The notes beneath the pieces were generated by a model, which saw only the letters and a program-made list of their open reading frames with translations, had not been told where the DNA came from and made no database searches. Shown here one piece after another: positions 1-42,128 of a stretch of DNA of 64,000 bases; positions within the stretch are counted from its first letter, which is position 1, and each line of letters opens with the position of its first letter. The stretch comes from Bacteroidales bacterium (lineage in GTDB: Bacteria > Bacteroidota > Bacteroidia > Bacteroidales > WCHB1-69), in NCBI GenBank assembly GCA_017554325.1, contig JAFZIP010000005.1, positions 128,211 to 192,210 on the forward strand, written 5' to 3'. The translations under genes were made by a program, and so were the position numbers.

Positions 1-620
1 GTCTCATCGTGCTCCACCTTTCCCATCGATTCAGCGTAGGTCTTGTAAACCTGCATCGCTTCAGTGTTAAGGGTCTTTTTGCGACTGGCTGTGAAGCCTG
101 TGGAAAAATCGCCAGGGCGGACAACAACAACTTGTATTCCAAATTGTTGGATTTCCAATCTCAAAGCTTCGCAATAGCCTTCGATTGCAAACTTGCTGGC
201 AGAATAGAAGCCTTGGAACGGCAGTCCCATCACGCCACCGATGGAACTCAACGCGATAATCTTACCCTTACCTTGCTTGCGCATATAGGGCAACACCGCG
301 GTCACGAAATGCACAAGTCCCATAAAGTTGGCATCCATCTGCTCCCGGATCTCTTCTTCAGTGGCAAACTCCACAGGTCCTCCGATACCCATTCCGGCAT
401 TGTTAACCAAAACGTCAATGCGTCCTTCTTTTTCAAACACCTGTTTTACAGCGCTTTTCACAGCTTCGCGATCACGGACGTCCACCTTCAGGTAATGCAC
501 TCCGGGCAATGGTTCCACCTCACGACGCACAGTACCATATACTATATGGCCTTCTTGCGACAGCAATCGGGCAGTCTCCAAACCGAAACCCGATGAAACA
601 CCTGTAATCAGAACAATCAT
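1..620 (-). CDS. Short-chain dehydrogenase/reductase (SDR); C-terminus lies beyond the window edge
   Basis: Not in the ORF track because there is no stop in the window. The reverse complement from ATG 620-618 reads MIVLITGVSSGFGLETARLL (TGxxxGxG), followed by NNAG and YSASK (YxxxK) motifs. The ATG lies 2 nt after the stop of the upstream SPT-like gene. Confidence 0.85.
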   Translation of the reverse strand, partial: MIVLITGVSSGFGLETARLLSQEGHIVYGTVRREVEPLPGVHYLKVDVRDREAVKSAVKQVFEKEGRIDVLVNNAGMGIGGPVEFATEEEIREQMDANFMGLVHFVTAVLPYMRKQGKGKIIALSSIGGVMGLPFQGFYSASKFAIEGYCEALRLEIQQFGIQVVVVRPGDFSTGFTASRKKTLNTEAMQVYKTYAESMGKVEHDE

Positions 621-622
621 GA

Positions 623-1813
623 CTATAGGATTTCTGCTTTCTTAAATGCTTTTGTAATTTTGTCGATAGCCTCATCCACCTGCTCGTAGGTGTGCGTGGC
701 CATCAGGGCGAAACGGATCAGCACATCGTTTTCGGGCACAGCGGGCGCGATGACTGGCGTGACGAAAACACCGTCTTCCAACAGGCGAGAGCAGAGCCAA
801 AATGCCTTCTCCGAGTTGCGTACAAACAGCGGAATGATAGGCGTTTCGCTGCGGCCCGTGTCGAAACCTCTCTCCTTGAACTGATTGCGAGCGTAGTTGC
901 TCACGTCCCAAAGGTGCTGGATGCGCTCCGGCTCCTCCAACATGATATCGATGGCCTTGTTGACTGCCGCCACATTGGAAGGCGGCATGCTGGCGCTGAA
1001 AATCAGCGACCGGGCATGGTGCTTCAAAAAGTTGATAGTGTCGGCATCAGAAGCGATGAAACCGCCCAACGAACCGAACGACTTGGAGAAAGTGCCCATG
1101 ATAAGACCGACTTTGTCGGTCAAACCGAAATGATTGGCTGTACCTCTGCCCTGATGTCCCAAAACGCCCAAAGAATGGGCATCGTCAAGCATAATCTCGG
1201 CGTCATACTTTTCAGCCAAAGCCACCATTTCAGGTAGCGGGGCAATATCTCCCTCCATGGAAAAGACACCGTCAGCCACAATCAACTTGACGGATTCGGG
1301 TTCGCATTGTTGCAAACATTTTTCCAGGCTATCCATGTCGTTATGGTCGTATTTCAGCACCTTGCCAAACGACAAGCGGCTTCCCTCAATAATGGAGGCG
1401 TGATCAAGACGGTCGAGCAGCAGATAGTCGCTACGGCCACACAGTGCGGAAACCACGCCCAAGTTCACCTGGAAGCCCGTGCTGAAGCACAGCGCATCAT
1501 CCTTGCCCACCAATTGGGCGAGCTTATTTTCCAATTCCACATGGATATCCAATGTGCCGTTAAGGAAACGCGAACCAGAGCAACTGGTACCGTATTTGTC
1601 GATGGCGGCCTTGGCGGCCTCTTTCAGACGCGGGTCGTTCGAAAGACCCAGGTAGCTGTTCGAGCTGAACATCAGCACATCCTTGCCTTCAATCTTCACC
1701 ACCGTACTTTGCTCTGTCTCTATCGCTTTATAATATGGGTAAATCCCTTTTTCTTTTGCTATTTGCGGCGCTCTGTATTGCGCACATTTGTTTCTTAAAA
1801 TCTGTGTTCTCAT
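623..1813 (-). CDS. spt: PLP-dependent alpha-oxoamine synthase, serine palmitoyltransferase-like
   Basis: 396-aa ORF with GSRFLNGT, DDAHS and the PLP-lysine motif GTFSKSFG. The SRxLNGT signature looks like bacterial SPT rather than BioF or Kbl. Confidence 0.75.
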   Translation of the reverse strand: MRTQILRNKCAQYRAPQIAKEKGIYPYYKAIETEQSTVVKIEGKDVLMFSSNSYLGLSNDPRLKEAAKAAIDKYGTSCSGSRFLNGTLDIHVELENKLAQLVGKDDALCFSTGFQVNLGVVSALCGRSDYLLLDRLDHASIIEGSRLSFGKVLKYDHNDMDSLEKCLQQCEPESVKLIVADGVFSMEGDIAPLPEMVALAEKYDAEIMLDDAHSLGVLGHQGRGTANHFGLTDKVGLIMGTFSKSFGSLGGFIASDADTINFLKHHARSLIFSASMPPSNVAAVNKAIDIMLEEPERIQHLWDVSNYARNQFKERGFDTGRSETPIIPLFVRNSEKAFWLCSRLLEDGVFVTPVIAPAVPENDVLIRFALMATHTYEQVDEAIDKITKAFKKAEIL

Positions 1814-2051
1814 CTATTATTAATAAAAAATCCACAAATTTGTCCAGCAAGCTGGGCATGAGCAAAAACAATAATATGTATAAGGACTTGCATATTCAAC
1901 TGACAATCAATTCATTTTTTCAATATCCAACAACAACCTAGCATATCCTTACACGAAGCGGCAAAGATACACAAATATTTGGTACTTTTGCCGCCGTTTT
2001 AAAAATGAGCTTTTTACTCGAAACTATCGCATTTTAACATAAAGATTTGAT

Positions 2052-4472
2052 ATGGTTTTTGTAAGAATTTACCGATTTTTCACCCAACACAAGATATTTT
2101 TATATTCACTTTTGATTATAAGCAGTGTCGTCTTTGCCTTCTTCGCAGCAAAGGCACACTTCGAGGAGGATTTAATCAAGCTTCTGCCGAAGTCTGACGA
2201 ATCGGAGTGTGGAGTGGTATTCGGCAATATCAAGGTCAAAGACAAACTCTTCATGCAGATGACGGGTGCTGAGCCCGAGGTGATGGTAGGCTACGTGGAT
2301 GAACTGATGGACTCCATACTCACCAATGACGAAGGCATCGCCAACACGCTCTACCGTTTGGAACCCGACATGGCGCTCAACGCGCTCGATTACGCCATGA
2401 TGCACGTGCCCTCGTTCGTGGACTCGACCCTGTACTCCCGTTTTGACTCGGCCATCGCACACGCCGACGAAACGATGGCGCACAACTATGAAATGATCAT
2501 GAACGACGAGACCGGCATGGCTAGCGAGTTGGTCTCCACCGATCCGCTATGCCTGCGCGAATGCCTGATGCCCGACCTCTCCAGTGGCATGGGCTTCACC
2601 CTCATCGACGGCCATCTGTTCTGCGCCGACAGCACCGTGGCACTGATCTTCATTTCCCCTGATTTCCAGACGTTTGATTCACAAGCCAGTCATAAACTCG
2701 TCAGCCATCTCAACCATTGCATAGAGCAATTCCATCAGGCGCATCCGGATGTGGAGGTGCTCATGCATGGCGGCGCGGTGGAGGCGGTCGGCAACGCCAG
2801 CACCATGAAGCGCGACATCTTCATCACCATCGGAATCTCCTTGGTGCTGATTCTCCTCTATTTGTGCATCAGTTTCAAGAGCTACAATATTATATGGCAG
2901 AATGTGCTGCCGATTGTTTACGGTACGATCTTCGCGTTGGCCTGCATGTATTGGATCAAAGGTGGAATGTCGTTGATGGCTTTGGGCGTGGGGGCCGTGA
3001 TTTTGGGCGTTGCGCTCAGCTATTGCTTACATATAATTGTGCATCAACGCTTCGTTGGCGATGTGGAGCAGATGTTGAAAGATGAGGCCATTCCCGTTTG
3101 CCTCGGCTGCCTCACCACCATCGGTGCATTCCTCGGTCTGATGTTTACGCAGAGCGAATTATTGAAAGACTTCGGTCTGTTCGCCACCTTCGCGCTCCTC
3201 GGCAGCACCTTCTTCACATTGATCTTCCTGCCTCACTTCCTTAATGTAAAAGATGCCAAACACAGCAAAAGGGCATTCAAGTTGATAGACAAAATCAACA
3301 ATTATCCTTACGACCGCAATCCATTTATTATCATTACATTGTGCATTGTTATCCTGATAGGATTCATCTTTTCCGGCAAGGTGCAGTTTGACAATGACTT
3401 GAAGCATATCGGTTTCGAGAGTGAGGCTTTCAAAAAATCTCAAAAATTGTATGCCGAGAAAAACGACCATGGCGGTTTGCAAAAGTATTATGCCGTAACT
3501 GCTTCCGATCTGGATGAAGCTTTGGATGCCAATGTAGTGATTTCCAATACCCTGGATTCCTTGTATAAGGCAGGTGATCTGTTCACTTACACGCCGGTCG
3601 TGTCCATGTTGTTCCAGTCTCAGGCGGAGCAGGAGCGTCGCATTGCCGCATGGCAGCGTTATTGGACTCCTGAGAAGGTGGCGCAAGCCATGGCATCCGT
3701 GAAAGCTGCCGCAGTGAAAAACGACATCTCACCCGACATCTTCATTCCGTTCCAAGCGATGGTGGAAGCGGAGTATGAACCCGGGAACCTTTATGAGTCC
3801 GGCGTTGTCCCCGAAGGCCTGCTCTGTAACTTCATTGAGGAGACAGATGGCAAGTATTTGATTTTCAATGCCACACAGTTATCCAAAGATAAAGCGGGCG
3901 AAGTCAGCGACATCATAGCATCCAAACCGCATGCCGTGGTGGTGGATCCTTTATACTACACAGGTGGCATGATTTCCCTGATTCACAAGGACTTCAATCT
4001 GGCATTGCTCATCTCGTCCATTTTTGTGTTTGTTGTGCTTCTTTTCTCATTCAGAAATATTTTGATCTCAATTCTTGCCTTTATGCCGATGTTCATCAGC
4101 TGGTACGTGGTTCAGGGCTGGATGGCCATCCTCGGTTTGTCATTCAACATGATCAACATTGTGATCTCCACCTTCATATTCGGTATTGGCGTGGACTACA
4201 GTATTTTTGTCATGAAGGGATTGATTGAGAAGCAGACTCTGGAGAGCAGCAAATTGCTGGAGTACCACAAGGTAGCCATCTTCTTCTCGGCCCTGGTGTT
4301 GATTATCGTGATGGGGGCGATGTTGTTCGCCAAGCACCCTACCATCGTCTCAATCGGCGAGTGCGCATTAATCGGCATGATCTCCACCATCCTGATCACC
4401 TACACGTTACAACCGTTAATCTTCCGCTGGCTGATGAAGATTCCGTTCATGAAACGGAGAATGGAGAAATAA
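2052..4472 (+). CDS. MMPL/RND-superfamily predicted (lipid) exporter
   Basis: 806 aa with an N-terminal TM and two multi-TM bundles (about aa 255-400 and 650-800), each preceded by a large soluble domain. This is the typical MMPL/COG4258 layout. Confidence 0.7.
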   Translation: MVFVRIYRFFTQHKIFLYSLLIISSVVFAFFAAKAHFEEDLIKLLPKSDESECGVVFGNIKVKDKLFMQMTGAEPEVMVGYVDELMDSILTNDEGIANTLYRLEPDMALNALDYAMMHVPSFVDSTLYSRFDSAIAHADETMAHNYEMIMNDETGMASELVSTDPLCLRECLMPDLSSGMGFTLIDGHLFCADSTVALIFISPDFQTFDSQASHKLVSHLNHCIEQFHQAHPDVEVLMHGGAVEAVGNASTMKRDIFITIGISLVLILLYLCISFKSYNIIWQNVLPIVYGTIFALACMYWIKGGMSLMALGVGAVILGVALSYCLHIIVHQRFVGDVEQMLKDEAIPVCLGCLTTIGAFLGLMFTQSELLKDFGLFATFALLGSTFFTLIFLPHFLNVKDAKHSKRAFKLIDKINNYPYDRNPFIIITLCIVILIGFIFSGKVQFDNDLKHIGFESEAFKKSQKLYAEKNDHGGLQKYYAVTASDLDEALDANVVISNTLDSLYKAGDLFTYTPVVSMLFQSQAEQERRIAAWQRYWTPEKVAQAMASVKAAAVKNDISPDIFIPFQAMVEAEYEPGNLYESGVVPEGLLCNFIEETDGKYLIFNATQLSKDKAGEVSDIIASKPHAVVVDPLYYTGGMISLIHKDFNLALLISSIFVFVVLLFSFRNILISILAFMPMFISWYVVQGWMAILGLSFNMINIVISTFIFGIGVDYSIFVMKGLIEKQTLESSKLLEYHKVAIFFSALVLIIVMGAMLFAKHPTIVSIGECALIGMISTILITYTLQPLIFRWLMKIPFMKRRMEK

Positions 4473-4521
4473 AAATTATACTTTTGCCGCCCATTTTTCT
4501 CAAGACAACTATATTATAAGA

Positions 4522-5052
4522 ATGAAAAAATTACTGACCATTATCCTTGCAGTGTTGACCTTTGCTGCTTCAGCGCAGAAGGTTGAGACCCATTTCACAG
4601 AATCTAAATTCATCAAAGCATCCGGCAAGACCCTCGAAGCCGAAGGCACGTTCAAGCTCTTCTCCGCCGACAAAATGGAGATGCGCTATACCAAGCCCGC
4701 TGGCGACTATTTCATCATCGATGGCAGGACGGTGAACATGAACATGCGCGGTAAGAAGTCGGTGGTGGACACCGACAAAAATGCCGCCATCCGCTCGCAG
4801 CGCAACACCTTGATGAACTGCATCAACGGCAATTGGAAACAGGCTGCCACCGACAACAACGCCGAGAGTTCCGTGGTGGAGAAGGGCGCCAACAAGATCG
4901 TGACATTGAGTGCCAAGAAAGCGGCGCCGAGGGGCTATTCCAAGATCATCATCACCTATCGGAAGTCCGACAACCTGCCCACGGAGATGGTGCTTGAGGA
5001 GTTTAACGGCACGGTGACCACCATCAAATTGTCCAACATCATAAAAAAATAG
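4522..5052 (+). CDS. Small secreted LolA-fold carrier-like protein
   Basis: 176 aa with signal peptide MKKLLTIILAVLTFAASAQ. It has a beta-rich LolA-like pattern and lies 49 nt downstream of the exporter. Confidence 0.55.
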   Translation: MKKLLTIILAVLTFAASAQKVETHFTESKFIKASGKTLEAEGTFKLFSADKMEMRYTKPAGDYFIIDGRTVNMNMRGKKSVVDTDKNAAIRSQRNTLMNCINGNWKQAATDNNAESSVVEKGANKIVTLSAKKAAPRGYSKIIITYRKSDNLPTEMVLEEFNGTVTTIKLSNIIKK

Positions 5053-5126
5053 CATCCGGCGAGGTTGTTGATAACCCCTGTTGAAAATATTTTTTCTGCC
5101 TGATACCGAGCATATTATAAAAAATG

Positions 5127-5134
5127 TATATTTG
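5127..5134 (+). promoter_or_regulatory. Candidate Bacteroidota -7 promoter box (TATATTTG) for the rplC unit
   Basis: Matches TAnnTTTG and lies about 120 nt upstream of the rplC ATG. The leader contains small hairpins, for example TTGCTT-ATTCA-AAGCAA at 5170-5186. Confidence 0.4.
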
Positions 5135-5254
5135 CAGGCTCGAATTTTAAACCGCGAAGTGTTGATAAGTTGCTTATTCAAAGCAATTTATCACAAATGA
5201 ATGGCTTAACTTCGATGCGTAAAAGACACTAAATTTTTTATAAATCAATTTAAA

Positions 5255-5884
5255 ATGTCAGGATTAATAGGAAAAAAAATTGGTATGACTAGCATCTACG
5301 ATGCCTCCGGCAAGATCGTGCCGTGCACAGTGATAGAGGCTGGTCCTTGCGTGGTTACGCAAGTCAAGACCGTCGAGAAAGACGGCTACAGTGCAATCCA
5401 ATTGGGTTACGACGAAAAGAAAGAGAAAAACACGACGAAGCCTTTGAAGGGCCACTTCGCCAAGGCAGGCACCACGCCGAAGAAAATCTTACACGAGTTC
5501 ACCCGTTTCGAGGAAGGACACAAGAAGAATTTCGGTGAGGTTCTGGACGTAACCGTCTTCGAGGAAGGCGAGTTCGTGGACGTGAGCGGAACTTCCAAGG
5601 GTAAAGGTTTCCAGGGCGTTGTGAAACGTCACGGATTCGGCGGTGTAGGCGATGCCACACACGGTCAGCACAACCGTCTGAGAGCTCCCGGTTCAATGGG
5701 TGCTTCCTCCTACCCTTCCCGCGTGTTCAAGGGCATGCGCATGGCCGGCCAAATGGGTAACGCAAAGGTCAAGGTCATCAACATTCAGATTCTGAAGATT
5801 GTCAAGGAAAAGAATTTATTAGTAGTTAAAGGTTCTGTACCCGGAGCCAACGGATCATATTTAATTATTGAAAGATGGAGCTAA
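5255..5884 (+). CDS. rplC: 50S ribosomal protein L3
   Basis: 209 aa with conserved blocks [36 protein letters not shown] and [11 protein letters not shown]. Confidence 0.97.
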
Positions 5885-6504
5885 CAGTATATAAAATAGA
5901 CGGCAGTTCAACTGCAAGAACGGTTACCCTGAATGATCAGATCTTCAATGTGGAACCCAACGATCATGCCATCTGGCTTGACGTGAAACAATATTTGGCC
6001 AACCAAAGACAAGGCACACACGACACGCTGGAACGCTCCACCGTCTCCGGTAGCACCCGCAAGCTGAAACGCCAGAAAGGTACTGGCGGCGCACGTGCCG
6101 GTAGCATCAAGAGCCCCACGATCCGTGGCGGTGCAACCGTTTTCGGACCTCACCCGAGAGACTACTCTTTCAAGCTGAACAAGAAAGTGAAGAGACTCGC
6201 CCGTTTCTCCGCCTTCACCTACAAGCAGAAAGATGGTAAAATCACGGTGGTGGAAGACTTCAACTTCGAGGCTCCCAAGACCAAAGCTTACAGCGAGATG
6301 CTGAAAAACCTCAAGCTCGACGGTCAGAAGACACTTCTTATCACGGCTGAAAGCAACAAGAACGTGTTCCTGTCCGCACGCAACCTGCAACGCACCAACG
6401 TGATGTGCGCCCAGAACGCCAACACCTACCACGTGTTGAACGCCGGCCATATCATCCTCTGCGAGAGCAGCCTCAAAGAGCTGGAGAAAATGTTAGGCGA
6501 ATAA
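5875..6504 (+). CDS. rplD: 50S ribosomal protein L4
   Basis: 209 aa with [13 protein letters not shown] and other L4 blocks. The ATG overlaps the rplC stop by 10 nt. Confidence 0.95.
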
Positions 6505-6529
6505 TTATAAACCTTAAAAAAGAAAAACA

Positions 6530-6820
6530 ATGAGTATCATTATAAAACCCATCATCAGCGAAAAAATGACGCAGACGGCTGAGAAATACAACCGCTACGG
6601 TTTCATGGTGACCCGCGAGGCCACCAAGCCTGAAATCAAACGCGAAATAGAGGCCGTTTATGGTGTTAAAGTAGTCCGCGTAAATACCTTGATCCAACGC
6701 GGTAAAGTCACGAACCGCAATACTAAGGCTGGCGTCATCACGGGTCAGAAGAACAACTTCAAAAAGGCCTACGTGTTCGTGGACAAGGATCAAAAAATCG
6801 ATTTTTATAGTAATATTTAA
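6530..6820 (+). CDS. rplW: 50S ribosomal protein L23
   Basis: 96 aa with the L23 pattern IIKPIISEK...AYVF, in the canonical position between L4 and L2. Confidence 0.93.
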
Positions 6821-6825
6821 AAGAG

Positions 6826-7650
6826 ATGGCACTTAAAAAGTACAAACCAGTAACGCCGGGTCAGCGCTTCAAAGTGATCAGCGCATTTGATGACATTACC
6901 ACCAACACACCCGAAAAGAGTTTGTTGAGTCCGATTCACCGGACAGGCGGAAGAAACAACAGTGGTAAAATGACGGTACGGTACCGCGGTGGCGGTCACA
7001 AAAGGATGTACCGTATGATTGATTTTAAAAGAGAAAAAGATGGCGTTCCCGCTATCGTGAAAACGATTGAATACGATCCGAACCGTTCGGCCCGTATCGC
7101 CCTCGTTTATTACGCTGACGGTGAGAAACGCTACATCGTGGCTCCTCACGGTATCAAGGTGGGCCAGGAAATCCTCAGCGGCGCAGGCGTGTCCCCCGAT
7201 TTGGGCAACTGCCTCCCTGTTGGCGAAATTCCTTTCGGTTCCATCATCCACAACATCGAGATGCGTCCGGGCCAGGGTGCCAAAATCGCCCGTAGTGCCG
7301 GTTCTTACGCACAACTCATGTCCCGCGAAGGCAAATACGCCATCATCAGAATGCCTTCTGGTGAAACCCGTATGATCCTCTGCGCCTGCAAGGCCACCAT
7401 CGGCATCGTGTCCAATGGCGACCACAGCCTCGAGGTTTCCGGTAAGGCCGGTAGATCCCGTTGGTTGGGCAGACGTCCTCGCAACCGTGGTGTGGTTATG
7501 AATCCTGTCGATCACCCGATGGGTGGTGGTGAAGGTCGTGCATCCGGTGGACACCCGCGCTCTCGCAAGGGTATTCCTGCTAAGGGTTATAAGACCAGAC
7601 ACCCGAAGAAGAATTCCAGCCAGTATATCATCGAAAGAAGAAAGAAATAA
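6826..7650 (+). CDS. rplB: 50S ribosomal protein L2
   Basis: 274 aa with [15 protein letters not shown] and [23 protein letters not shown]. Confidence 0.97.
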
Positions 7651-7667
7651 TCTAAAAGCTTAATATT

Positions 7668-7946
7668 ATGAGTCGTTCATTAAAAAAAGGTCCGTATATA
7701 CATTACAAATTGGAACAACGTGTGATCGCCGCTCAGGAATCTGGCAAGAAGACCACCATCAAGACCTGGTCGCGCGCCTCTATGATTTCCCCTGACTTCG
7801 TAGGCCTTACCATCGCTGTTCACAATGGCAACAAATTCATCCCCGTGTATGTTACCGAAAACATGGTCGGCCACAAACTCGGCGAATTTGCTCCCACCCG
7901 TATTTTCCGCGGACACGCAGGCCAAAAAGACAAAGGTTCCAAATAG
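7668..7946 (+). CDS. rpsS: 30S ribosomal protein S19
   Basis: 92 aa with SLKKGPY and [28 protein letters not shown]. Confidence 0.97.
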
Positions 7947-8003
7947 TTTTCTGTTTCGGAAACCCGCTTCCTTCCTTCGATATTCATTTATCTCACTATA
8001 CCA

Positions 8004-8036
8004 AAATCCCTTTTCAAACGGAAAGGGATTTTTTAT
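8004..8036 (+). terminator. Intrinsic terminator directly after rpsS
   Basis: AAATCCCTTT (8004-8013) pairs with AAAGGGATTT (8022-8031) around an 8-nt loop, followed by a T-run. Confidence 0.8.
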
Positions 8037-8108
8037 TTCAACAAACTGACAATACTCTCCCTAAACACACAAATATTCCTTATTTTTGCACCCTAAAAAT
8101 CACCTCTG

Positions 8109-9530
8109 ATGCTGTTCAATTCGCTGGAATTCGCCATTTTTCTACCCATAGTATTCCTGCTGTACTGGTTCGTGTTCAACCGGAACGTGAAATGGCAGAA
8201 TCTATTTGTCGTGGTGGCTTCCTATATCTTTTACGGATGGTGGGACTGGCGATTCCTCTTTCTTATCGCCTTCACATCCCTCTGCAGCTGGGGAAGCGGC
8301 CTGCTGATTGACAAATATCGACAAAGTCGTACCGCTACCGTAATCCATATTTTAAACATCGTATTGAACTTGGGTGTTCTGGCCCTTTTCAAGTACTACG
8401 ATTTCTTTGCCGACTCTTTTGCAAGACTGTTTCTTCATGGGAACAGCGACAAACTGCTGCTGCACCTCATCCTACCTGTCGGGATCAGTTTCTACACCTT
8501 CCAGGCGCTGAGCTACAGCATTGACGTTTACCGGAAAAAAATGGAGCCCACCCGCGACATCATCCAGTTCTTCGCCTTCGTGAGTTTCTTCCCACAACTT
8601 GTGGCCGGTCCTATCGAGCGCGCCACCAACCTGCTCCCCCAGTTTGAGAAACCCAGAACCTTCGACTATGCGCAAGGTGTGGATGGCATGAGACAGATTC
8701 TATGGGGCCTTTTCAAAAAAGTGGCAGTGGCAGACACTTGCGCAGTATATGTAGATCAGGTCTTCGGAAACTACCTGAATCAGAACGGAACAACCCTCAT
8801 CATTGCCGCCATTCTGTTCGCCATCCAAATATACGGAGACTTCTCCGGCTACTCCGACATCGCCATCGGCACCGCCAAGCTATTCGGAATCCGATTGATG
8901 CGCAACTTCCGGAACCCCTATTTCAGCCGCGACATCGCTGAGTTCTGGCGCAGGTGGCACATTTCGCTGACCACCTGGTTTCGCGACTACGTCTATATCC
9001 CCCTCGGCGGGAGCCGTGTGTCAAAAGGCAAGATTATCCGTAACACCTTCATCATCTTCTTGTTAAGCGGCTTCTGGCATGGTGCCAACTGGACATTCAT
9101 CGCTTGGGGCGCCTACCACGGCATCCTGTTCCTGCCGTTGATTCTGACCGGGAAAAACCGGAAATATCTGAATGAAGTGGCCGAAAACAAAATGCTGCCC
9201 TCCCTGAAAGAAACCGGACAAATCATACTCACCTTCATGCTGGTCACCATCGGTTGGATCATTTTCCGTTCCGACTCCATTTCACAAGCATGGCAGTATA
9301 TTACACTTATTCCTCATTTAGGTATCCCATATACTGAAGGACTGTTAACCACCGCACTGCTAGTAATTGGAATGTTCATCGTGGAATGGCTGCAACGCAC
9401 ACGAGAACATGGTCTTGACCTACAAATTCTTAATTCTCACATACTTAAATTCTCTATTTACTACATTATTATCATTATCCTCTTCCTTGTCCAAAAAGGG
9501 GCCGAATCGTTTATCTATTTCCAGTTTTAA
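8109..9530 (+). CDS. MBOAT-family membrane O-acyltransferase (AlgI/DltB-like)
   Basis: 473 aa and polytopic. It carries the conserved His region FWRRWHISLTTWFRDYVYIPLGGSR and SGFWHGANW. Confidence 0.85.
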   Translation: MLFNSLEFAIFLPIVFLLYWFVFNRNVKWQNLFVVVASYIFYGWWDWRFLFLIAFTSLCSWGSGLLIDKYRQSRTATVIHILNIVLNLGVLALFKYYDFFADSFARLFLHGNSDKLLLHLILPVGISFYTFQALSYSIDVYRKKMEPTRDIIQFFAFVSFFPQLVAGPIERATNLLPQFEKPRTFDYAQGVDGMRQILWGLFKKVAVADTCAVYVDQVFGNYLNQNGTTLIIAAILFAIQIYGDFSGYSDIAIGTAKLFGIRLMRNFRNPYFSRDIAEFWRRWHISLTTWFRDYVYIPLGGSRVSKGKIIRNTFIIFLLSGFWHGANWTFIAWGAYHGILFLPLILTGKNRKYLNEVAENKMLPSLKETGQIILTFMLVTIGWIIFRSDSISQAWQYITLIPHLGIPYTEGLLTTALLVIGMFIVEWLQRTREHGLDLQILNSHILKFSIYYIIIIILFLVQKGAESFIYFQF

Positions 9531-10520
9531 ATGAAAAAATTCCTGTTACGAACCATATTATTCTTCGGCATTCTGCTTCTTCTGGCGTGGTCAGCGGATA
9601 TTTGGATTACGCACCAATTCAAGAAGCTGGAATCCTCCCCTTTCGGCAATTGGAATGACATTTACAGTTCCGATATCCAAAGTGATGTGCTCATCATTGG
9701 TAGTTCGAGAGCCTACGTACAGTTCAACCCTCGCATTTTAGACAGTGTTCTGCATATCAACAGCTACAATTTGGGCATGAACGGGCGGGCAGTGGAATCG
9801 CAAGTCATCAAATACCACACGTATCGGCGCAAGCACAATGCCAAGCCGAAGCTCATTCTTTTTGAAATATATCAGGGTACGTTAGACACCAGCAACGGTT
9901 TCGACCGCCTGCAATTCGTGCCTTATCTCAAGGATCCCGTGCTGTGGAACGATATTCGCAAGGTGGACGGATTCTCGTGGGCCGACTGCTTCATTCCATG
10001 CTGGCGATACAGCCATTACAAAAAAGACGTGAAGGATATCATCCTCGGAAAATCTTTTTATTACTGCGATCCGAAGAACAAATTGTATAAGGGATTTTGC
10101 GACTTTGACAAGCCTTGGGATGGCAGCAGACTGGCCAAAATCGATACCATCCATTACAGCAGGATTCCCTCCGCCATTCATGAATTAGATCAGTTCTTAC
10201 GGGAATGCCAGAATGAAGGAATCCGCGTGGTCTTCGTCATTGCGCCCTACTATATCGGTGCCACTCAGAAGATCGATGACATTGACGGCATGTACGAGCT
10301 GTTCTATTCCATTACAGAGCCCTATCAAATACCGATTATGGACTACACCTATAATCCCATTTCTTGCGACACCAACTATTTTTACAACAATACGCACCTG
10401 AATCGCAAGGGTGCGACCTTGTTCTCATTGAAGTTGGCGCACGATTTGGACTCTTTGCACCTGATACCAGGCAAAGAGCATAATGAACCACCTAAATATG
10501 TTCGGAAATATGACCTATAG
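9531..10520 (+). CDS. Membrane-anchored partner of the MBOAT enzyme (DltD/AlgJ/SGNH-like, tentative)
   Basis: 329 aa with an N-terminal signal-anchor and an IIGSSRA motif shortly after it. The ATG abuts the MBOAT stop (TAA-ATG). Confidence 0.4.
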   Translation: MKKFLLRTILFFGILLLLAWSADIWITHQFKKLESSPFGNWNDIYSSDIQSDVLIIGSSRAYVQFNPRILDSVLHINSYNLGMNGRAVESQVIKYHTYRRKHNAKPKLILFEIYQGTLDTSNGFDRLQFVPYLKDPVLWNDIRKVDGFSWADCFIPCWRYSHYKKDVKDIILGKSFYYCDPKNKLYKGFCDFDKPWDGSRLAKIDTIHYSRIPSAIHELDQFLRECQNEGIRVVFVIAPYYIGATQKIDDIDGMYELFYSITEPYQIPIMDYTYNPISCDTNYFYNNTHLNRKGATLFSLKLAHDLDSLHLIPGKEHNEPPKYVRKYDL

Positions 10521-11465
10521 GTTCGTCAGTACATTCAAAGTCTGCGGTACCAGCTCCACCCGATAGTCTCCAGTGCTCAGCAATTCACCCTCCACCTCGC
10601 TCCGGAGCAAAGTGTCAGAATTTACCTTCAGTCTGTCGGTTTGATACGTGAGGATGCCTTTGATAGACTGAATATGCGTACCCTTGAAAATCCTGCCGAC
10701 ATTGGCCACCACTGTGATACCGCGTACATTGGGAACCACCACCACATCCAACTTACGGTCGTCGGGCACCGCCATGGGCACTTGGCGCATACCACCTCCA
10801 TTGTACTGACAAATGCCAGCCACCATCAGGAAAGATTTGTCCTTGAAATGAAAATCAGACCCGTTGATATCCACCTGCTGGCTTTTATAACGAAACAGGC
10901 ATCTTATAAGACTCAGTACATATACAGAAATACCTAAAAAATGGGGTTTGTTATGGGTAACGTCATGAATCACTTCCGCATCAAAGCCGAAGCCTGCAAT
11001 GTTGATGAAATAGCGATGAGCCTTTTCCACATCATGTTCCAACGTCTTCACCACACCGATATCGTGCTGCATGAAATTGCCTTTGAGAAAAATCTCCAAA
11101 TTCTGGCCGATTTCAGTGGAAAAATTATGTGTACGCGCCCAGTCGTTGCCACGACCCACAGGCATGACGGCGAGATATACCTCGTTCAAGGCCACTCCCG
11201 ACTCGCAGATGCCGTTGACCACCTCGTTGAGTGTGCCATCACCACCGAGCACCATCAGATGCCGGTGCCCATCCATACAAAGCTGGCGGGCAGTCTCAAT
11301 ACCCTTCAGCGGAGCATCTGCAAAATGTATGACATACTGGATATTCTTTTCCCGAAGCAGTTTCTCTATATCTTTCCAAATTTTCAGGCAGTTATGCTCT
11401 CTCGCATTCGGGTTCAGGATCACCTGCCATGTGAACTGAGTTACATTTAAGTTATTAGTAGCCAT
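10515..11465 (-). CDS. Diacylglycerol-kinase-family lipid kinase (YegS/BmrU-like)
   Basis: 316 aa with the DAGK catalytic motif MVLGGDGTLNEVVNG. Confidence 0.8.
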   Translation of the reverse strand: MATNNLNVTQFTWQVILNPNAREHNCLKIWKDIEKLLREKNIQYVIHFADAPLKGIETARQLCMDGHRHLMVLGGDGTLNEVVNGICESGVALNEVYLAVMPVGRGNDWARTHNFSTEIGQNLEIFLKGNFMQHDIGVVKTLEHDVEKAHRYFINIAGFGFDAEVIHDVTHNKPHFLGISVYVLSLIRCLFRYKSQQVDINGSDFHFKDKSFLMVAGICQYNGGGMRQVPMAVPDDRKLDVVVVPNVRGITVVANVGRIFKGTHIQSIKGILTYQTDRLKVNSDTLLRSEVEGELLSTGDYRVELVPQTLNVLTNL

Positions 11466-11474
11466 ATTCAGATA

Positions 11475-12161
11475 TCACTTATTTTCATACAAAGCCAACG
11501 CTTTCTCAGCCGCAGCCTGTTCTGATTTCTTCACCGCAAAGCCCAATCCTTCCGACACTTCCTCTCCATCCAGCAGCACAATAGTCTTGTAAATGTGCCC
11601 ACGGCCATCTGGGACGGATTTGCTGTTAAACTGCACCTTGTGCTTGTTTTTCTGCGCCCAGATCAGGAGGCGGCTCTTGTAGTCATCATCCTCTTCATAA
11701 ACCGTTTCCATATCCAGATGGGTCAGGAAGATATGGTTGATGATAACGTCGTAGGTCCTCTTGTATCCCAGATCCAGGTAAATAGCTCCGACCACAGCTT
11801 CGAAGGCATTGCCGTTGACACTGTCGCCGTTGAGTTTGCATCCCTTTTTGATCATGTCGTGCAAGCCGAGTTTTACAGCCAGAGCATTGAGCCGGGCACG
11901 GTTAACCAGTTTGGAGCGCATGCGCGTGAGTACACCTTCTGATTCCATAGGATATTTATGGAAAAGAAAATCCGCTGTGACTGCACTCAACATGGCATCG
12001 CCCAAGTACTCCAACCTTTCGTTGTTCACCTTGCCAACAATAGCATTGTTTTCGGAACTTGACCGATGAGTAAGGGCTATCTTATAGAGGTCCACATGCC
12101 GGATACGTAAGCCAAAGACATTGCGAAAATAGGCACGAAACTCCTTGTTGGTCAGCTCCAT
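11475..12161 (-). CDS. rnc: Ribonuclease III
   Basis: 228 aa with the RNase III signature ERLEYLGDAML and a C-terminal dsRBD-like segment. It lies downstream of fabF, as is usual. Confidence 0.9.
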   Translation of the reverse strand: MELTNKEFRAYFRNVFGLRIRHVDLYKIALTHRSSSENNAIVGKVNNERLEYLGDAMLSAVTADFLFHKYPMESEGVLTRMRSKLVNRARLNALAVKLGLHDMIKKGCKLNGDSVNGNAFEAVVGAIYLDLGYKRTYDVIINHIFLTHLDMETVYEEDDDYKSRLLIWAQKNKHKVQFNSKSVPDGRGHIYKTIVLLDGEEVSEGLGFAVKKSEQAAAEKALALYENK

Positions 12162-14378: not shown

Positions 14379-14449
14379 GTACCTTTGCCGCCTTGAACTA
14401 CTAATAATAGTCTCTAATCTCTAATCTATCATCTCTAATCCAATCAAGC

Positions 14450-16380: not shown

Positions 16381-17226
16381 TTGCGAAAAGTCCTTCTTTT
16401 TATCGGCTGCTGCTGTGCGTTTTGCAGCTCACGGGCGCAGATAGCCTGCGACTCCGTGACATCCGTTTTCCGTCACTGGGAGGAGCGCATTGCCAGCCTC
16501 AATTATGAGGATCCGGAGCTCATCAACCTGCATTATCTTTTTTTGCAAGACATCCAAAAGGAGATTCATCGTTTCCAGGAACGGGATCTGCCCAAATTGC
16601 ATTATTGTTTGCAATTGGACTATTACGGCACCAAAGCCGATTTCCAGAAAGTGCAATACAAGGCCAATCGGGCCGAAGCCGTCCTGTCGGAGCGCAAAGC
16701 GCTCGTTGACCGAATGTTTTACGAAAGGGCAAAGGAGGATTTGGCCTTCCTCGACACCATCAACGCCCTGTACAACCTGGACCGGGCACTACAATTCAAC
16801 AAATACCAGCCGGAGGCTCTGCTCATGAAAGCCCGCCTCAAATTGGCACAGAAATCCTATCAGGAGAGCGTCGATCTTATCCATCTGCTCTACACTCAGG
16901 CTGAACTGAATGATGAAATGGAGATGGCCGTCTCGGATTTCACCTTGGAACTCTACGAAGAATTGTATCAGGTGGGTGACAATCTGGTGAAGAATAACCG
17001 TTCAGCGGAAGCTCTGGAAGTATTTCTGGCTTTGGAGCAATTCTGCACCAACATGCCGTCGGGCTACTGCAACGACGACTATTACCGCGGCATCCTGCGC
17101 TCGCGCGAAGGAGTCTATGAGTCTTACATCGCCATCGCGCGCGAGGCGGAGCTCAGACACAACCATGAAATGGCTCGAAAATTCTATCAATACGCTGAAG
17201 AATGGAAACAACGCGGTAAACAATAA
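16381..17226 (+). CDS. Hypothetical secreted helical-repeat protein
   Basis: 281 aa with a TTG start in the track and a Cys-rich signal peptide. I recognise no catalytic motif. It lies 3 nt after the thioredoxin stop. Confidence 0.45.
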   Translation: MRKVLLFIGCCCAFCSSRAQIACDSVTSVFRHWEERIASLNYEDPELINLHYLFLQDIQKEIHRFQERDLPKLHYCLQLDYYGTKADFQKVQYKANRAEAVLSERKALVDRMFYERAKEDLAFLDTINALYNLDRALQFNKYQPEALLMKARLKLAQKSYQESVDLIHLLYTQAELNDEMEMAVSDFTLELYEELYQVGDNLVKNNRSAEALEVFLALEQFCTNMPSGYCNDDYYRGILRSREGVYESYIAIAREAELRHNHEMARKFYQYAEEWKQRGKQ

Positions 17227-17269
17227 GCTTCCGCTTTCTTCCGTTACATATTTCGTAAAAAAATCTATC

Positions 17270-20200
17270 ATGAAAAAAACATTTATTATTCTTTCCGGGA
17301 TAATTCTCCTCACTATGAACCTATCAGCACAGCAATCTCCGAAAGAGATCAAATCATTATTGGATAAATATGAGCAGCAACTCATGCGTCTTGATAATGG
17401 ATATGATACTGTCTATCAAGAAATTTATTACCAAATTAAGCAGCAATACAACCCCGCCAACCGAGCCATTTGGCACAGTTGCATGGCCCAGTTTCTCAAC
17501 AACTATTACCAGGAGAACCGCTGGCGCATTCTGGAACGCACGCCCGTGGAAGGTGGAATACCCGACGATCTCAAATTATGGGACATCCAGACTTTGGTAA
17601 AACAGATTGTCTTCCATTACCAGCAGTCGCTGCGCGATGAGGACCTCCTGATCCAAATCTCCATCCGGGAATACGCTCCACTGCTCGACTCTGTGTACGC
17701 TGACGAGTATCGTCCTACGCTATACGACCTTCTGGCTTTCCGTGCGCTGGATTTTCTGAGCCGTCGCATCAGCGAGATGCCCATCCCCGCTACGCCTTTT
17801 GATGTAAACAACGGCAAATACTGGTCGGAGAACAGTGTTTTCACCAACATGAACATTAGCTCACCCGACGAATTTTCGTTCTCCTATCATTCCTTGAAAA
17901 TCATGCAGACCCTCACGCAGCTGCATCTGAACGACATCGACCCGCACGCGTTGTTGGATGTGACGCTGCGGAGGTACGAGTATCTTTCTTCCAACTGCAC
18001 CCTGGAGAACGCTTCCGAAACTCATTTGAAAGAATTGCTGAAGCTGGAACAGCAGTATCGCAACCGGACGGGGCATGAAATGGTGGCTTACCAGTTAGGA
18101 GAATACTACCAAAAGCGTGGAAGTTCCTACGATAAAAACACACATCCGGAATATGCCAACGACTACGTAACTGCCATTGAATGGTTCCAAAAGGCCATTG
18201 ATGACGATCCCAAGTCCCTTGAAGGACGCAATTCTCAAGTGGAGATCAATCAAATACAGCAATCCAGCATCGGTTTCTCTGTGGTCAACATCATGCCGGT
18301 TGGCAAATCCAACCTTATCAATTTCAACTACAAAAACAGCCGGTACATCTATTTCCGAATCATCCCCATCACAGATGCTGAATATACCCAGTTGATGAGA
18401 AGCAATCGTTTCTATCAGGATCTGATTGCCAAAAAGAATATCTATGAAACCAGCTTTGCCGCACCCGATGAAAAAGATTACAGGATGAAGAGCGGTCATT
18501 TCCTGCTGCCTGCTATGAAGCAAGGTCTCTATATCTTGCTGGCATCCAATGCTCCCTTCAGCAGCAACAGTATGGGCGACTACGCTTACACCAAAGTCCG
18601 CATCTCGAATCTGGCGGTCAACTACCGCTCCAACGGCACACTGTATGAGTTCTTCGCCACCGACCGTTCCACCGGGCGCCCCATTGAGGGGGTGAACGTC
18701 TCTGTACAAACATTTTCAGACTACCAACACAAAAAACAACTCTCTCATTATAAGCTCACCACCGACAAAAATGGCCGTTGTGAGTACCGATTTGCAGACA
18801 AAGAAATTGGCCGTCTGCGCGTCACAGTGAGCAAGAGCGGTGAAGAGTTTACCCTCATTGAAAACAATTGGATGGAGAAGCCCTATTCTGGAAGCCGTGA
18901 TGATTTACGCACTTACATTTTCACTGACCGCACCATTTACCGTCCGGGCCAGACCGTCTATTACAAAGGCATTGTGGTGAAGGAAACGTCCGAATCCGGT
19001 CACTATCGAACGGTCAGCAAGGATGTGGCCATCGCTGAGATTGAGAATGTTATTTTGAAAGATGCCAACTGGCAGGACATTGAAAAGGTTGATGTGACCA
19101 CTAACGAATATGGTTCCTTCTCCGGCAGTTTTGTTTTGCCCACTTCGGGATTGAACGGCACCTTCCATATCCACTGCAACCATGGTTCAGCCGACATTCA
19201 GGTGGAAGAGTACAAGCGCCCCACCTTTGAGGTGGAGATGGAGCAGCCCAAAGAGCAATTCAAAATCGACCAAGAGGTGAAGGTAAGCGGCACTGTGAAG
19301 GCCTACGCCGGTTACGCGTTGGAAGGTGCTACGGTCAAGTACAATGTCGTGCGCGAGGCCAGTTTCCCGTGGTGGCGCTGGTGGTGGTATTCGCCCAGCA
19401 GTCCTTCGCAACAGATAGCTTCCGGCGAGGTGACGACCGATGCCGATGGCAAGTTCCTCATCCAGTTCACCGCACTGCCCGATTTGGAATCGCAACGCTA
19501 CAACCCGCTGTACCGCTACAAAATCACCGTTGATGTAACCGACATCACAGGCGAGACGCACTCCGCAAACACCTCCGTGCTGGTCAGCAAAAACAGTCTG
19601 ATGATCAACAGTGACCTGCCCGAGCATCTGTTCACCAGCGACAAGAACGCCTTTGCCGTGAAGGCCACCAACCTAGCCGGCGAGCCGCAAAAGGCCGTGC
19701 TGCACTATGAGATTGCCGCCTTACAAACTCCTGCGGAATACCTCAACGAGTGCCCCAGCCACGACTTCTACCTCTCCGACTCCACGGCCATGAAAAAGGC
19801 TCTGCCTTATCTTGACTTCCAGAATAAGCGCCGTATGGAGAATTGGGAGGGGGACATTGTCTGCGGCGGCGAATTTGAAGCCGACGGCAAGCGAATTTTC
19901 TCCATTCCGAATCTGGAAAAACTTGCTGAAGGCACCTACAAAATCACTTTCACCACCCGCGACCAAGACAGGAATGAGATTACCCAAGAAAATTTCTTCA
20001 CCCTCCATAACGAGAAAAGCAAGAAATCCGTCGCCTACAAGCCGCTGTGGATTCATCAGCAGAATGGGGAAACCAGCGAGGTGGGCGAAACCATCCACGT
20101 GACCATCGAAACGTACTTGAAGGACGCTTCTGTGCTTTGCGAAATATTCTCCAACGACAAACTGATAGAATCCAAATGGGTGAATCTGGATCGTGGCAAG

Positions 20201-23200
20201 GCAACCTTCACCTACCTGCTCACGGAGCGCGACCTCGGTACGGTGGTGTTCAGGGCATACACGGCACAAAACAACCGGCAGTACGAGGATGCTTTGAGCG
20301 TCTATGTGCCCTATTCCCACAAAAAGATCGATTTCGACTTCCTCACCTTCCGTGATAAAACCGAACCCGGCAGTGCCGAGCAGTATCAAATACGGCTGAA
20401 AGACAAAAACGGCGACAAGGTGGCCGCCGAGCTGCTTTGTTCCATGTATGATGCCTCGTTGGACGCTTTTGCCTCGCCCAACTCATTCAACCGCTCCATC
20501 TTCAGCCGCTGGCACAGTCTTTACGACTATTCTTTCTCCGGTAGTATCAATAGAAATGGATTTTCAACATCTTACGGTGGATCCTTGTCCAATGCCAACA
20601 TAGGCGGAATCCGGGAACGCATTTACCCACAGTTGCAATTCCTGAACAGAGGCTACTATAGCTACGGCAGAGGAGGCGGAAGACTATACAAGACCGCTGC
20701 CGCCGCTCTCGATGGGGTGGTTTTGAATATGGTAGAAGATAATATCAGTGTAAATTCAGCCCTTGACTTTACCGCAGATGTAATGGAAGAAGCAAAAGAA
20801 ACGGGTCTCGCTGAAATGGCAGACGAGGGCGTTCACACGGAAGGCTCTCGCCAAGAAGAGCCGGAACAAAACCAAGTACGCACCAATTTCAACGAAACCG
20901 CCTTCTTCTATCCTCACCTGCGCACCGACAAAGACGGCAATGTGCTGATATCCTTCACCATGCCAGAGTCGCTGACGCGCTGGAAGCTGTTGGGATTTGC
21001 CCACAACACGGACTTGATGTCCGGCTATTTCGAGAAATATGTGCAGACCAGCAAGAAGCTGATGGTAGTGCCCAATGTACCGCGTTTCCTGCGCGAGGGC
21101 GATACGCTAATTCTGTCGGCCAAGGTGGTCAACATGGACAGCGTGACGCAATGCGGCAACGTGACGTTGCAATTTTACAACGCGATTGACGGCCAACCGG
21201 TGGATATGATATTAAATAATTCCGTAGAGACGGTGCATGCACCGTCTCTACCGGAAAACACACAACCGTTTGATGTGAAACCCGGTGCATCGCAAGAGGT
21301 CCGTTTCCGCGTGCTGGTGCCGCAGAACCTCGGAGCCGTCACCTGCCGCATCGTGGCCCGCAATCTGGAAACCCCGGCCTTTGCCGATGGCGAGGAGCGC
21401 ACCCTGCCCATCCTTACCAACCGCATTCTGGTGACCGAGAGCCTGCCGTTGCATATCTCTGGCAAGGGCAGTAAGAGCTTCACTTTCGAGCGGCTGAAGA
21501 ACAGCTTCGCCGCCAGTGCAAGTTCTACCCTCTCCACCCAGTCGCTGACACTGGAATTCACTCCCAACCCCATCTGGTACGCCATCCAAGCCATGCCTTA
21601 TTTGATGGAATATCCGTACGAATGCAACGAGCAGATTTTCAGCCGTTACTATGCCAACACCCTGGCCACCAACATCGTGAACAGTCACCCGCGCGTGAAG
21701 CAGGTGTTCGACGAATGGCTCAACACCAGTCCGGATGCTTTCTGTTCGCAGTTGGAGAAAAATCAGGAACTCAAGAGCGTCTTGTTGGAAGAGACTCCGT
21801 GGGTGCTGGATGCACAAAAAGAGTCCACGCGCAAACAGAACATCGCGTTGCTCTTTGACCTGCAGCGCATGGCCAAGGAGAACAAGAGTGCCTGCAAGAA
21901 ACTGGAAGAGCGACAGAACAGCGACGGCGGCTGGTCGTGGTTCTCCGGCGGTCAAAGCAGCGCCTACATCACCGAGCATATCGTGGCGGGCTGCGGCCAC
22001 CTCAACGCACTGGGCGTCAAGTCGGAGCTGAAATCCGCCACACTCAGAAAGGCCATCAACTACATAGACCGCGAGATGTACGACTTCTACCAGCGTTGGC
22101 AGAAGAAAGAGCACTCCTGCTCCTGGGGCGACATCCACTACCTCTACGCCCGCAGTTTCTTCCTGGATCAGAAGGTCAGCCTCACCCACCAAGAAGCGTA
22201 CAATTACAACTACAACAATATCAAGAAGAACTGGAAGAGCCAGTCCATCTACATGCAGGGCATGATTGCGCTCGTGTGTTATCGCAACGGTGACACGCAA
22301 CTGGCAAAACAGATCATCGCGAACATCAAATCCATGGCGCAGTACAGCGAGGAGATGGGCATGTTCTGGAAGAAGGCAGGCTACGGCTATTTTTGGTACG
22401 AGGCGCCGATTGAGCGGCAGGCGTTGCTCATCGAGGCTTTCAACACCATCACGCACGACACGGAGTCGGTGGAGAAGATGCAGTTGTGGCTGCTCAAGCA
22501 GAAGCAGACGCAAAGCTGGCCCACCACCAAATCGACTACGGAGGCCATCTACGCCCTGCTGCTCAACAACACGCAACTGGAGAACACCAACGGCGTGCAA
22601 CTGACCATGGGCAATTGGACCTATACCGAAGGTGCTGACACCGAGCAAGCGGAGGCCGGGACCGGATACATCAAAAAATGCTGGAAGGGCGACGAGGTGA
22701 CTGCCGACATGAGCACGATAAAGATCGAGAAGCAGACCTCCGGTCCCGCGTGGGGCGGCCTTTACTGGCAATATTTGGAGAATCTCGACAAGGTAGAGCA
22801 CAGTATGGATGGCAACTTCGGCATCCAGAAGCAACTGTACAAAGTGGAGATTGGCGAGCGCGGCGAAGTGCTCACGGCCATCACGGAGCAGTCGCCGTTG
22901 AAAGCGGGCGACAAAGTGCGCGTGCGCGTGGAAATCCGCACGGACCGCGACATGGAGTATGTGCACCTGAAAGACATGCGTGCAGCCTGCTTCGAGCCCA
23001 CGAATGTCTTGTCGGGCTACCGCCACCAGGACGGCCTGTGGTATTACGAATGTACGAAAGACGCCTCCACCAACTTCTTCATCGACTACCTGCCCAAGGG
23101 CACCTACGTGTTCGAGTACACGCTGGTGGCCACCATGACGGGCACCTACAGCAACGGACTCACCACCATCCAGTGCATGTACGCACCGGAGTTCACCTCG

Positions 23201-42011: not shown

Positions 42012-42128
42012 TATAGTATATTTTGAAACGGTGTTATGGATATTATAGAATGAATCAGGTTTAATCAACATTATGTCTTATGATTCCGTTTTTAATTCCC
42101 AATTCCTAATTTCCAATTTAAAATTCGA

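Follow-up and report, generated by a model that had tools for sequence, protein, structure and literature searches.

Sphingolipids made by Bacteroidota arrive at the outer membrane and in vesicles, and they affect the host. By what route they travel is the question raised by a locus of an uncultured rumen Bacteroidales bacterium (lineage WCHB1-69; GenBank assembly GCA_017554325.1, contig JAFZIP010000005.1, positions 128,211 to 192,210), analysed here as one stretch of 64,000 nucleotides, the window. In 2024 the Klein laboratory, which worked out how bacteria make ceramides, stated that bacterial sphingolipids had neither a known flippase nor a known transporter (PMC11087976), and an April 2026 preprint from the same group states the route in Bacteroidetes as unknown (bioRxiv 10.64898/2026.04.12.717747). 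At the left end of the window, genes for a serine palmitoyltransferase (SPT) and a short-chain dehydrogenase/reductase (SDR) stand back to back with genes for an MMPL-type transporter and a LolA-fold protein. The original prediction, made from the letters of the sequence, took the latter two as a candidate route of sphingolipid, or another lipid, to the outer membrane. The analysis puts at an even chance the reading that the central genes for making a sphingolipid, dihydroceramide, stand here back to back with a two-gene module for lipid export, and the MMPL-LolA pair is offered as the best available candidate for the movement of sphingolipids to the outer membrane in Bacteroidota. The four genes and the region between them are as follows (aa, amino acids).

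1 to 620, minus strand: SDR (KdsR-like), N-terminal 206 aa of 264, cut by the left edge of the window
623 to 1813, minus strand: SPT, 396 aa; NF047600 SerpalmtaseCFB at 655.3 bits against a cut-off of 640
1814 to 2051: divergent intergenic region between SPT and MMPL, 238 bp, with two back-to-back Bacteroidetes-type -7 boxes
2052 to 4472, plus strand: inner-membrane transporter of the MMPL/RND superfamily (Pfam MMPL), candidate lipid exporter, 806 aa
4522 to 5052, plus strand: LolA-like protein (Pfam LolA), candidate periplasmic lipid carrier, 176 aa, secreted, non-lipoprotein

Relatives were collected in two surveys. An alignment of the MMPL protein was scanned against one genome per species, yielding 47 loci, all at 52% identity or more; the scan reaches only relatives at this level because it was based on two peptide motifs, and a second MMPL clade was missed by it. 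An SPT alignment was run against metagenome contigs, yielding 80 loci at 61-94% identity, of which 65 had enough downstream flank for an SDR and 33 had long flanks. MMPL and LolA genes near SPT were sought by tblastn or profile search, MMPL gene contexts were read on a tree of the surveyed loci, and key gene layouts were re-examined by tblastn and with independent database gene calls. Over positions 1-11813 the window matched L002, a metagenome contig of 456 kb, at 100% identity and ruminal_MAG_113 (L007) at 90-93%. All relatives found in every search were metagenome-assembled genomes of uncultured Bacteroidales or metagenome contigs, mostly from ruminants where a source was named.

The gene at 623 to 1813 reads as a genuine SPT and not as a sulfonolipid enzyme. 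The equivalog match spans residues 4-395. The protein scored 534 bits against the crystallised SPT of Sphingobacterium multivorum (3A2B/8GUH), to which it is 59% identical; the sulfonolipid enzymes SulA/CFAT (7U7H and 28EH), which are cysteate acyltransferases, gave only 243-252 bits. The pyridoxal phosphate lysine lies in TFSKS; 30 residues on, FSAS aligns with FSAS of the S. multivorum enzyme and puts an alanine at the position equivalent to Lys281 of SulA, which is alanine in SPTs and is the single active-site difference between the two kinds of enzyme (Radka et al., PMC9304779). These results bear on the possibility that the SPT-like and SDR genes encode a cysteate acyltransferase and a ketocapnine reductase and make the sulfonolipid precursor capnine, not sphinganine. 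Sulfonolipid enzymes are themselves SPT-like and use acyl-acyl carrier protein (acyl-ACP), a reductase step comes next in their pathway (PMC9304779, PMC11211663), and a dedicated ACP gene does lie next door to SPT-SDR. The alanine at the Lys281 position and the gap in score between the two sets of crystallised enzymes nevertheless speak for an SPT, the equivalog cut-off was passed, and the sulfonolipid reading was therefore rejected as very improbable.

The SPT stop codon (TAG, 625-623) is followed by 'tc' and then by the SDR start codon (ATG, 620-618), which confirms the gap of 2 nt that had been read between the two genes. The complete SDR in L002 is 264 aa long, and the full-length SDR of locus L001 is 99% identical over the 206 residues that fall in the window. 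Classical SDR motifs (TGVSSGFG, NNAG, S...YSASK) are readable in the sequence, and Pfam adh_short scored 160-165 bits. On the full-length L001 protein the best family was NF049977 KdsR (3-ketodihydrosphingosine reductase, a model built around BT_0972 of Bacteroides thetaiotaomicron) at 335.6 bits (next family 230, about 105 bits lower); that this score is below the equivalog cut-off of 400 counts against the assignment. No signal peptide was found, as expected of the cytoplasmic KdsR. The window's reductase is in this respect a classical SDR of KdsR type and differs from CerR, a periplasmic reductase of NDUFA9 type (PMC11087976). In 41 of the 65 loci with enough flank the gene immediately downstream of SPT was an SDR homologue (47-89% identity); SPT-SDR is thus a widely conserved gene pair or operon. 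The earlier proposal that the SDR is a candidate ketosphinganine reductase is well supported by the family match and this adjacency. It is not a new idea: the protein belongs to a family whose B. thetaiotaomicron member has been characterised, SPT there being BT_0870 and the 3-ketosphinganine reductase BT_0972 (PMC9278070). The window carries the same two enzyme families, its SPT passing the equivalog and its SDR matching the KdsR model best. A literature search on the neighbours of the B. thetaiotaomicron SPT gene and on a B. thetaiotaomicron fitness study found nothing.

Beyond the left edge of the window, in the same genome, the SDR is followed by convergent genes for a 371-aa protein with a GNAT signature, an 80-aa ACP and a 489-aa AMP-binding ligase resembling acyl-ACP synthetases. 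The 371-aa protein gave a weak Pfam GNAT match and no NCBIfam match. Its homologues stood immediately beside SPT or SDR in 25 of 66 loci, and SPT was flanked directly by a homologue of either the SDR or the GNAT protein in 58 of 65. Bacterial ceramide synthase has been reported to be often clustered with spt (PMC11334938); the placement of the GNAT protein fits that role and makes it a candidate by position. SPT-SDR with ligase-ACP-GNAT looks like a full ceramide cluster. The ACP and ligase resemble the AcpR/AasR pair at the SPT loci of Proteobacteria and Myxococcus (PMC9386255), and their presence here extends to some Bacteroidales the use of a dedicated ACP and ligase with SPT, so far described for Proteobacteria. 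Such a compact cluster is itself somewhat unusual, because the pathway genes of cultured sphingolipid-producing Bacteroidota have been reported as not clustered (PMC11334938), whereas the window's lineage holds them tightly together.

A dedicated ACP and an AMP-binding ligase accompany SPT in L002 (12037..14988), and were also recorded in L007-L020, L036, L044, L054, L059 and L137. In L020 there is no SDR between the GNAT gene (7421..8533) and SPT (8589..9776), and in L015 and L017 no LolA-like gene follows the SPT-adjacent MMPL gene; even within the close clade, then, the make-up of the cluster varies.

On the other side of the 238-bp divergent region, the two genes were confirmed as described in the original prediction: an 806-aa, two-bundle, MMPL/RND-like exporter and, 49 nt past it, a secreted 176-aa LolA-fold protein. 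Pfam PF03176 matched two stretches of the exporter at 62.5 bits (cut-off 20.5). Hydropathy predicted 12 transmembrane helices in two halves of 1+5, each half with one periplasmic loop of about 200 aa (TM1, loop 34-255, TM2-6; TM7, loop 443-647, TM8-12). The motif GIGVDY in the tenth helix (residues 711-716) was invariant among 11 homologues. Among solved structures and among NCBIfam families alike, the nearest match is the hopanoid transporter HpnN, of the RND/HAE3 kind, which has the same plan of 12 helices and two periplasmic domains and takes a lipid other than a phospholipid out of the inner membrane to the outer one. The resemblance is weak (124.2 bits against a TIGR03480 cut-off of 751.85; 50.1 against an NF052374 cut-off of 1100), and the match to 5KHN (E=1e-11) is confined to the C-terminal transmembrane bundle. 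HpnN is not known to work with a LolA-fold partner.

The 176-aa protein begins with a cleavable signal sequence (...FAASA|QK) that lacks a lipobox cysteine, and Pfam LolA (PF03548) scored 38.1 bits (cut-off 23.6). Searched as a profile against the sequences of the PDB, the carrier gave only spurious matches to repeat proteins. Structure prediction, one of the checks proposed beforehand, was carried out: the AlphaFold2 model (pLDDT 88.8, pTM 0.81) had LolA structures as its top 23 Foldseek matches in the PDB (probability 1.0, TM-score 0.58-0.70), and the prediction of a LolA fold, an open beta-barrel that encloses helices, is one of high confidence. The canonical lolA of the genome lies elsewhere in the window.

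41364 to 42071, minus strand: canonical lolA (LolA1), NF053572 at 176.5 bits against a cut-off of 100, beside ftsK
42129 to 44750: ftsK, adjoining canonical lolA

The statement that canonical lolA sits beside ftsK and that the 176-aa protein is an extra paralogue held, except that the gene ends at 42071 and not at 42011. BLASTP found no similarity between LolA1 and the 176-aa protein, and NF053572 was not among the profile matches of the latter. Its best curated family was NF053544 LolA2_flexi at 65 bits, below the cut-off of 125; the protein is a paralogue of LolA2/ApeL type and not the housekeeping LolA1.

This likeness brings in a pigment as possible cargo. In aryl-polyene clusters, ApeM (RND/MMPL), ApeL (LolA-like, equivalent to Flavobacterium LolA2) and ApeN are proposed to deliver the lipid to the outer membrane (PMC8253772, PMC11885536). 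The window's genes fall in the same general class as ApeM/ApeL, both systems pairing an MMPL-type protein with an adjacent small secreted LolA-fold protein, and a PlsC-type (lysophospholipid) acyltransferase, as ApeD is, often stands in the units of the window's family too. If the flexirubin-family match of the carrier were taken at face value, the pair would export an aryl-polyene or flexirubin-type pigment, as ApeL/ApeM or LolA2 do. The carrier is, however, below the LolA2_flexi cut-off, the biosynthetic genes linked to it are sphingolipid genes, and neither polyene synthase genes nor a DUF3261 partner of ApeN or LolB-like type were seen. When all 139 loci were searched by tblastn with FabF and AcpP, only housekeeping fabF (L007, L031, L034) and the ACP of the sphingolipid module lay within 10 kb of MMPL. 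Co-occurrence of the pair with aryl-polyene genes, named in advance as what would overturn the sphingolipid proposal, was thus not found. An aryl-polyene exporter was largely ruled out by the lack of polyene genes near the pairs, and a pigment is hardly credible as cargo.

For sphingolipid as cargo, the synteny of the window's own relatives was examined first on the tree. The SPT module divergently adjoins MMPL only in the clade at 84% identity or more, where it does so in at least 14 species-level genomes and in metagenome contigs L054 and L055. MMPL and its LolA-fold carrier form a conserved pair. Three of the 80 SPT loci held any MMPL or LolA gene, and the third of these (L059) proved to lie outside the window's MMPL clade. 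Its SPT, GNAT and ligase are 82-88% identical to those of the window's genome, its SDR 77% and its ACP 72%, while its MMPL (826 aa) is 46% and its LolA-like protein (174 aa) 41% identical to the window pair. Ligase, ACP, GNAT, MMPL and LolA form a single minus-strand operon in L059, convergent with SPT-SDR, with an overlap of 4 nt both between GNAT and MMPL and between MMPL and LolA. This pump belongs to a separate, deep clade, whose members share at least 71% identity with one another and 41-50% with each member of the window's family. Locus L137, with a pump 90% identical to that of L059, has the same five-gene operon and a 4-nt MMPL/LolA overlap, with no SPT-SDR nearby. A third layout is seen in L135/L136 (75% identical), where an MMPL of the same clade is followed by an 8-kb insertion, after which its LolA partner ends against the GNAT gene. 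With a deeply diverged pair inside the L059/L137 cluster and yet another layout in L135/L136, the link of MMPL-LolA to the sphingolipid module therefore arose independently at least twice. Two paralogous pump-carrier pairs joined to one biosynthetic module in three layouts are hard to attribute to chance; this is the strongest argument for a functional link, and it makes the pump-carrier pair a concrete, testable transport candidate.

The insertion in L135/L136 (11875..19214) encodes a Ser/Thr protein kinase, a Fic-domain protein and a 1048-aa leucine-rich-repeat protein. In L059 an AraC-type regulator stands just upstream of the five-gene operon, and a second type of YegS/DAGK kinase, 35% identical to the kinase in the window, lies two genes upstream of SPT (L059 7691..8698 and 17942..18790 being the kinase and AraC entries).

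The analysis shows which genes are present, their order, the folds of the proteins and a synteny that is conserved or recurs; reaction order, cargo, hand-off and energy source are inferred, as follows. SPT would condense serine with an acyl thioester to 3-ketosphinganine, and the co-transcribed cytoplasmic SDR would reduce this to sphinganine. The ligase, the 80-aa ACP and the 371-aa GNAT protein most likely supply acyl-ACP and attach the N-acyl chain. The MMPL protein, an RND-type and probably proton-driven transporter of the inner membrane, most likely takes the finished lipid from that membrane and passes it to the secreted LolA-fold protein, which would ferry it through the periplasm, bound for the outer membrane and vesicles. 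On the gene order and homology gathered here, it is about evenly balanced whether sphingolipid is what the MMPL-LolA pair carries.

Several findings weigh against it. Any MMPL or LolA gene was present in only those three of 80 SPT loci (two of the 33 with long flanks), all three of them in the band of at least 80% SPT identity. No SPT lay within 10 kb in any MMPL locus at 52-72% identity, nor within 10 kb in L009 and L010, which are 87-88% identical to the window's MMPL and form the sister branch of its sequence; L016 (86% identical) has no SPT nearby though it lies inside the SPT-linked clade. Most sampled members of the second clade are likewise not near sphingolipid genes (P0134, L134, L138, L139). 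MMPL is rare at SPT loci and its units are found without SPT, so that neither partner adjoins spt as a rule, and within the window's clade the adjacency could simply have been inherited. The usual neighbour of the MMPL-LolA pair is a PlsC-type acyltransferase and not spt. The conserved layout of the family, confirmed by independent database gene calls, is a DUF4249 lipoprotein, MMPL, a LolA-like protein and a 283-aa PlsC-type acyltransferase (PF01553), with the LolA gene only about 10 nt from the acyltransferase gene. It was found in all clades at 57-72% identity to the window MMPL, again in L010, and in part in the short contig L009; the window MMPL is orthologous to the MMPL of this unit. 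The earlier claim of a sphingolipid route is a reasonable hypothesis and partly supported: the independent operonic pair in L059/L137 strengthens it, aryl-polyene genes do not accompany the pair, and the habitual company of a PlsC-type acyltransferase weakens it.

The same layout suggests that the pair exports another acylated lipid, for example an acyloxyacyl amino lipid made by the PlsC-type acyltransferase, the adjacency to SPT being a lineage-specific rearrangement without functional meaning. Its conservation in every clade of the family, the short distance from LolA to the acyltransferase and the absence of MMPL from most SPT loci favour this. A HAD hydrolase is often near the unit and a GH3-family gene sometimes; GH3 homologues are suspected to be N-acyl amino acid synthetases in Bacteroidota (PMC12493201), and the recurrence of GH3/OlsH-like and HAD genes hints at an amino-lipid connection. 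Left unexplained are the divergent pair translationally coupled to GNAT/ACP/ligase genes in L059 and L137 and the second-clade pair abutting the module in L135/L136; moreover, no copy of the PlsC-type acyltransferase is present in the window's 64 kb, and the enzyme could itself act on a sphingolipid. An unrelated acylated lipid as cargo was judged a doubtful explanation, though one with real weight. The GH3-family genes, which match the lyso-ornithine-lipid synthetase OlsH weakly, and the HAD hydrolase recur beside the MMPL-LolA-acyltransferase unit in L025, L029, L035 and L050, and cluster c10 in L025-L033. Locus L019 holds two copies, SPT beside MMPL-LolA and, 5 kb away, DUF4249-MMPL-acyltransferase.

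Should the acyltransferase act on sphingolipids, the sphingolipid and other-lipid readings would merge; it might, for instance, attach the fatty acid that complex dihydroceramides carry in ester (acyloxyacyl) linkage, which is speculative. In the widest form of the proposal, MMPL-LolA pairs would be the general Bacteroidales route of sphingolipids from inner to outer membrane, the PlsC-type enzyme would O-acylate complex dihydroceramides, and the whole DUF4249-MMPL-LolA-acyltransferase unit would be sphingolipid machinery, docked to the biosynthetic genes in the window. This wider form of the sphingolipid proposal is unlikely.

The variety of contexts also allows the pair to be a general trafficking route to the outer membrane for several bulk lipids, sphingolipids included, placed beside whatever lipid genes happen to be near. 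Pairs were found with the acyltransferase, with the sphingolipid module, with secG/lptE (L139) and with a gene resembling TonB-dependent receptors (L134, L135, L138); some genomes hold two or more MMPL-LolA paralogues, and the carrier gene has a promoter box of its own. Fusion by stop/start overlap into an operon with pathway-specific genes argues instead for a dedicated role in some lineages, and several loci have MMPL without a LolA gene or a LolA gene without MMPL. A generalist pair was considered rather improbable.

The sphingolipid proposal was also compared with known transport systems. Caulobacter has the same problem of bringing sphingolipid to the outer membrane, and the preprint assigns the task there to the Lpt paralogues LptF2/LptG2/LptC2, a machine unrelated to the pair in the window; Bacteroidetes have only one lptFG copy and may use canonical Lpt or an alternative pathway (bioRxiv 10.64898/2026.04.12.717747). 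In Myxococcus xanthus an MmpL gene downstream of spt was put forward in the same preprint as a hypothesis only. An MMPL gene thus adjoins spt both there and in the window, and the preprint mentions no LolA-fold partner. No paper was found that proposes an MMPL-LolA pair as sphingolipid exporter, and papers on Bacteroidota LolA paralogues (including PMC11885536) mention neither MMPL partners nor sphingolipids.

Promoter elements were read in the divergent region and in the spacer between the exporter and carrier genes.

1958 to 1969 (starting at 1969), minus strand: -7 box TATCTTTGCCGC, facing SPT
1983 to 1995, plus strand: -7 box TACTTTTGCCGCC, facing MMPL
4473 to 4521, plus strand: MMPL-LolA spacer, 49 nt, with its own -7 box TACTTTTGCCGCC at 4479-4491

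The back-to-back pair recurs in L012, L013, L015, L019, L020 and L036, and the spacer box is kept at the same place in L007, L008, L009, L012, L013, L016, L019 and L036. The boxes have the form TAnnTTTG extended by CCGC; of 53 TAnnTTTG in the window, 4 are followed by CCGC, more than by any other 4-mer. Three of only four copies of the extended motif TAnnTTTGCCGC in the window stand upstream of SPT, MMPL and the LolA-like gene. A specific regulon of these genes was considered and ruled out: the fourth copy (14380-14392, plus strand) precedes murD, and the motif is also common before unrelated genes in related loci. It therefore marks promoters and not a dedicated regulon, and seems to be a lineage-typical strong -7 element. 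In positions 1-5400, scans for sigma-70 promoters and terminators gave no signal above chance, and an Rfam scan gave nothing above chance.

A lipid kinase had been listed as a nearby gene.

10515 to 11465, minus strand: YegS/DAGK-family lipid kinase, by family match

The gene is present and was dropped as a part of the system, to which it adds nothing. Beyond its own species it is not a conserved companion of the cluster, and the kinase close to SPT in L059 shares just 35% identity with it.

Between the carrier gene and rplC, L001 (6029..6673) and L007 carry an extra gene resembling cytidylate kinase 2, where the window has just a 202-bp spacer (5053..5254). Positions 5255..7946 hold only rplC-rplD-rplW-rplB-rpsS, with the LolA-like gene in the usual place of rpsJ and an MBOAT gene in that of rplV; the S10 ribosomal operon appears to be split or fragmented in this lineage. 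The MBOAT/DltB-like membrane acyltransferase (473 aa) and a following 329-aa protein, which has an N-terminal hydrophobic segment and no family match, occupy 8109..10520 and look like a two-gene O-acylation unit. A 2038-aa open reading frame runs from 17117 to 23233 on the plus strand. Some 4-8 kb before the start of the window, on its left, L001 and L002 (15943..19414) encode an archaeal-type GatD/GatE Glu-tRNA(Gln) amidotransferase pair, which passes the NCBIfam equivalog cut-offs (458 against 324; 461 against 456) and is conserved in L007, L008 and L014. Such a pair is unexpected in a Bacteroidales genome and may have been transferred from rumen archaea.

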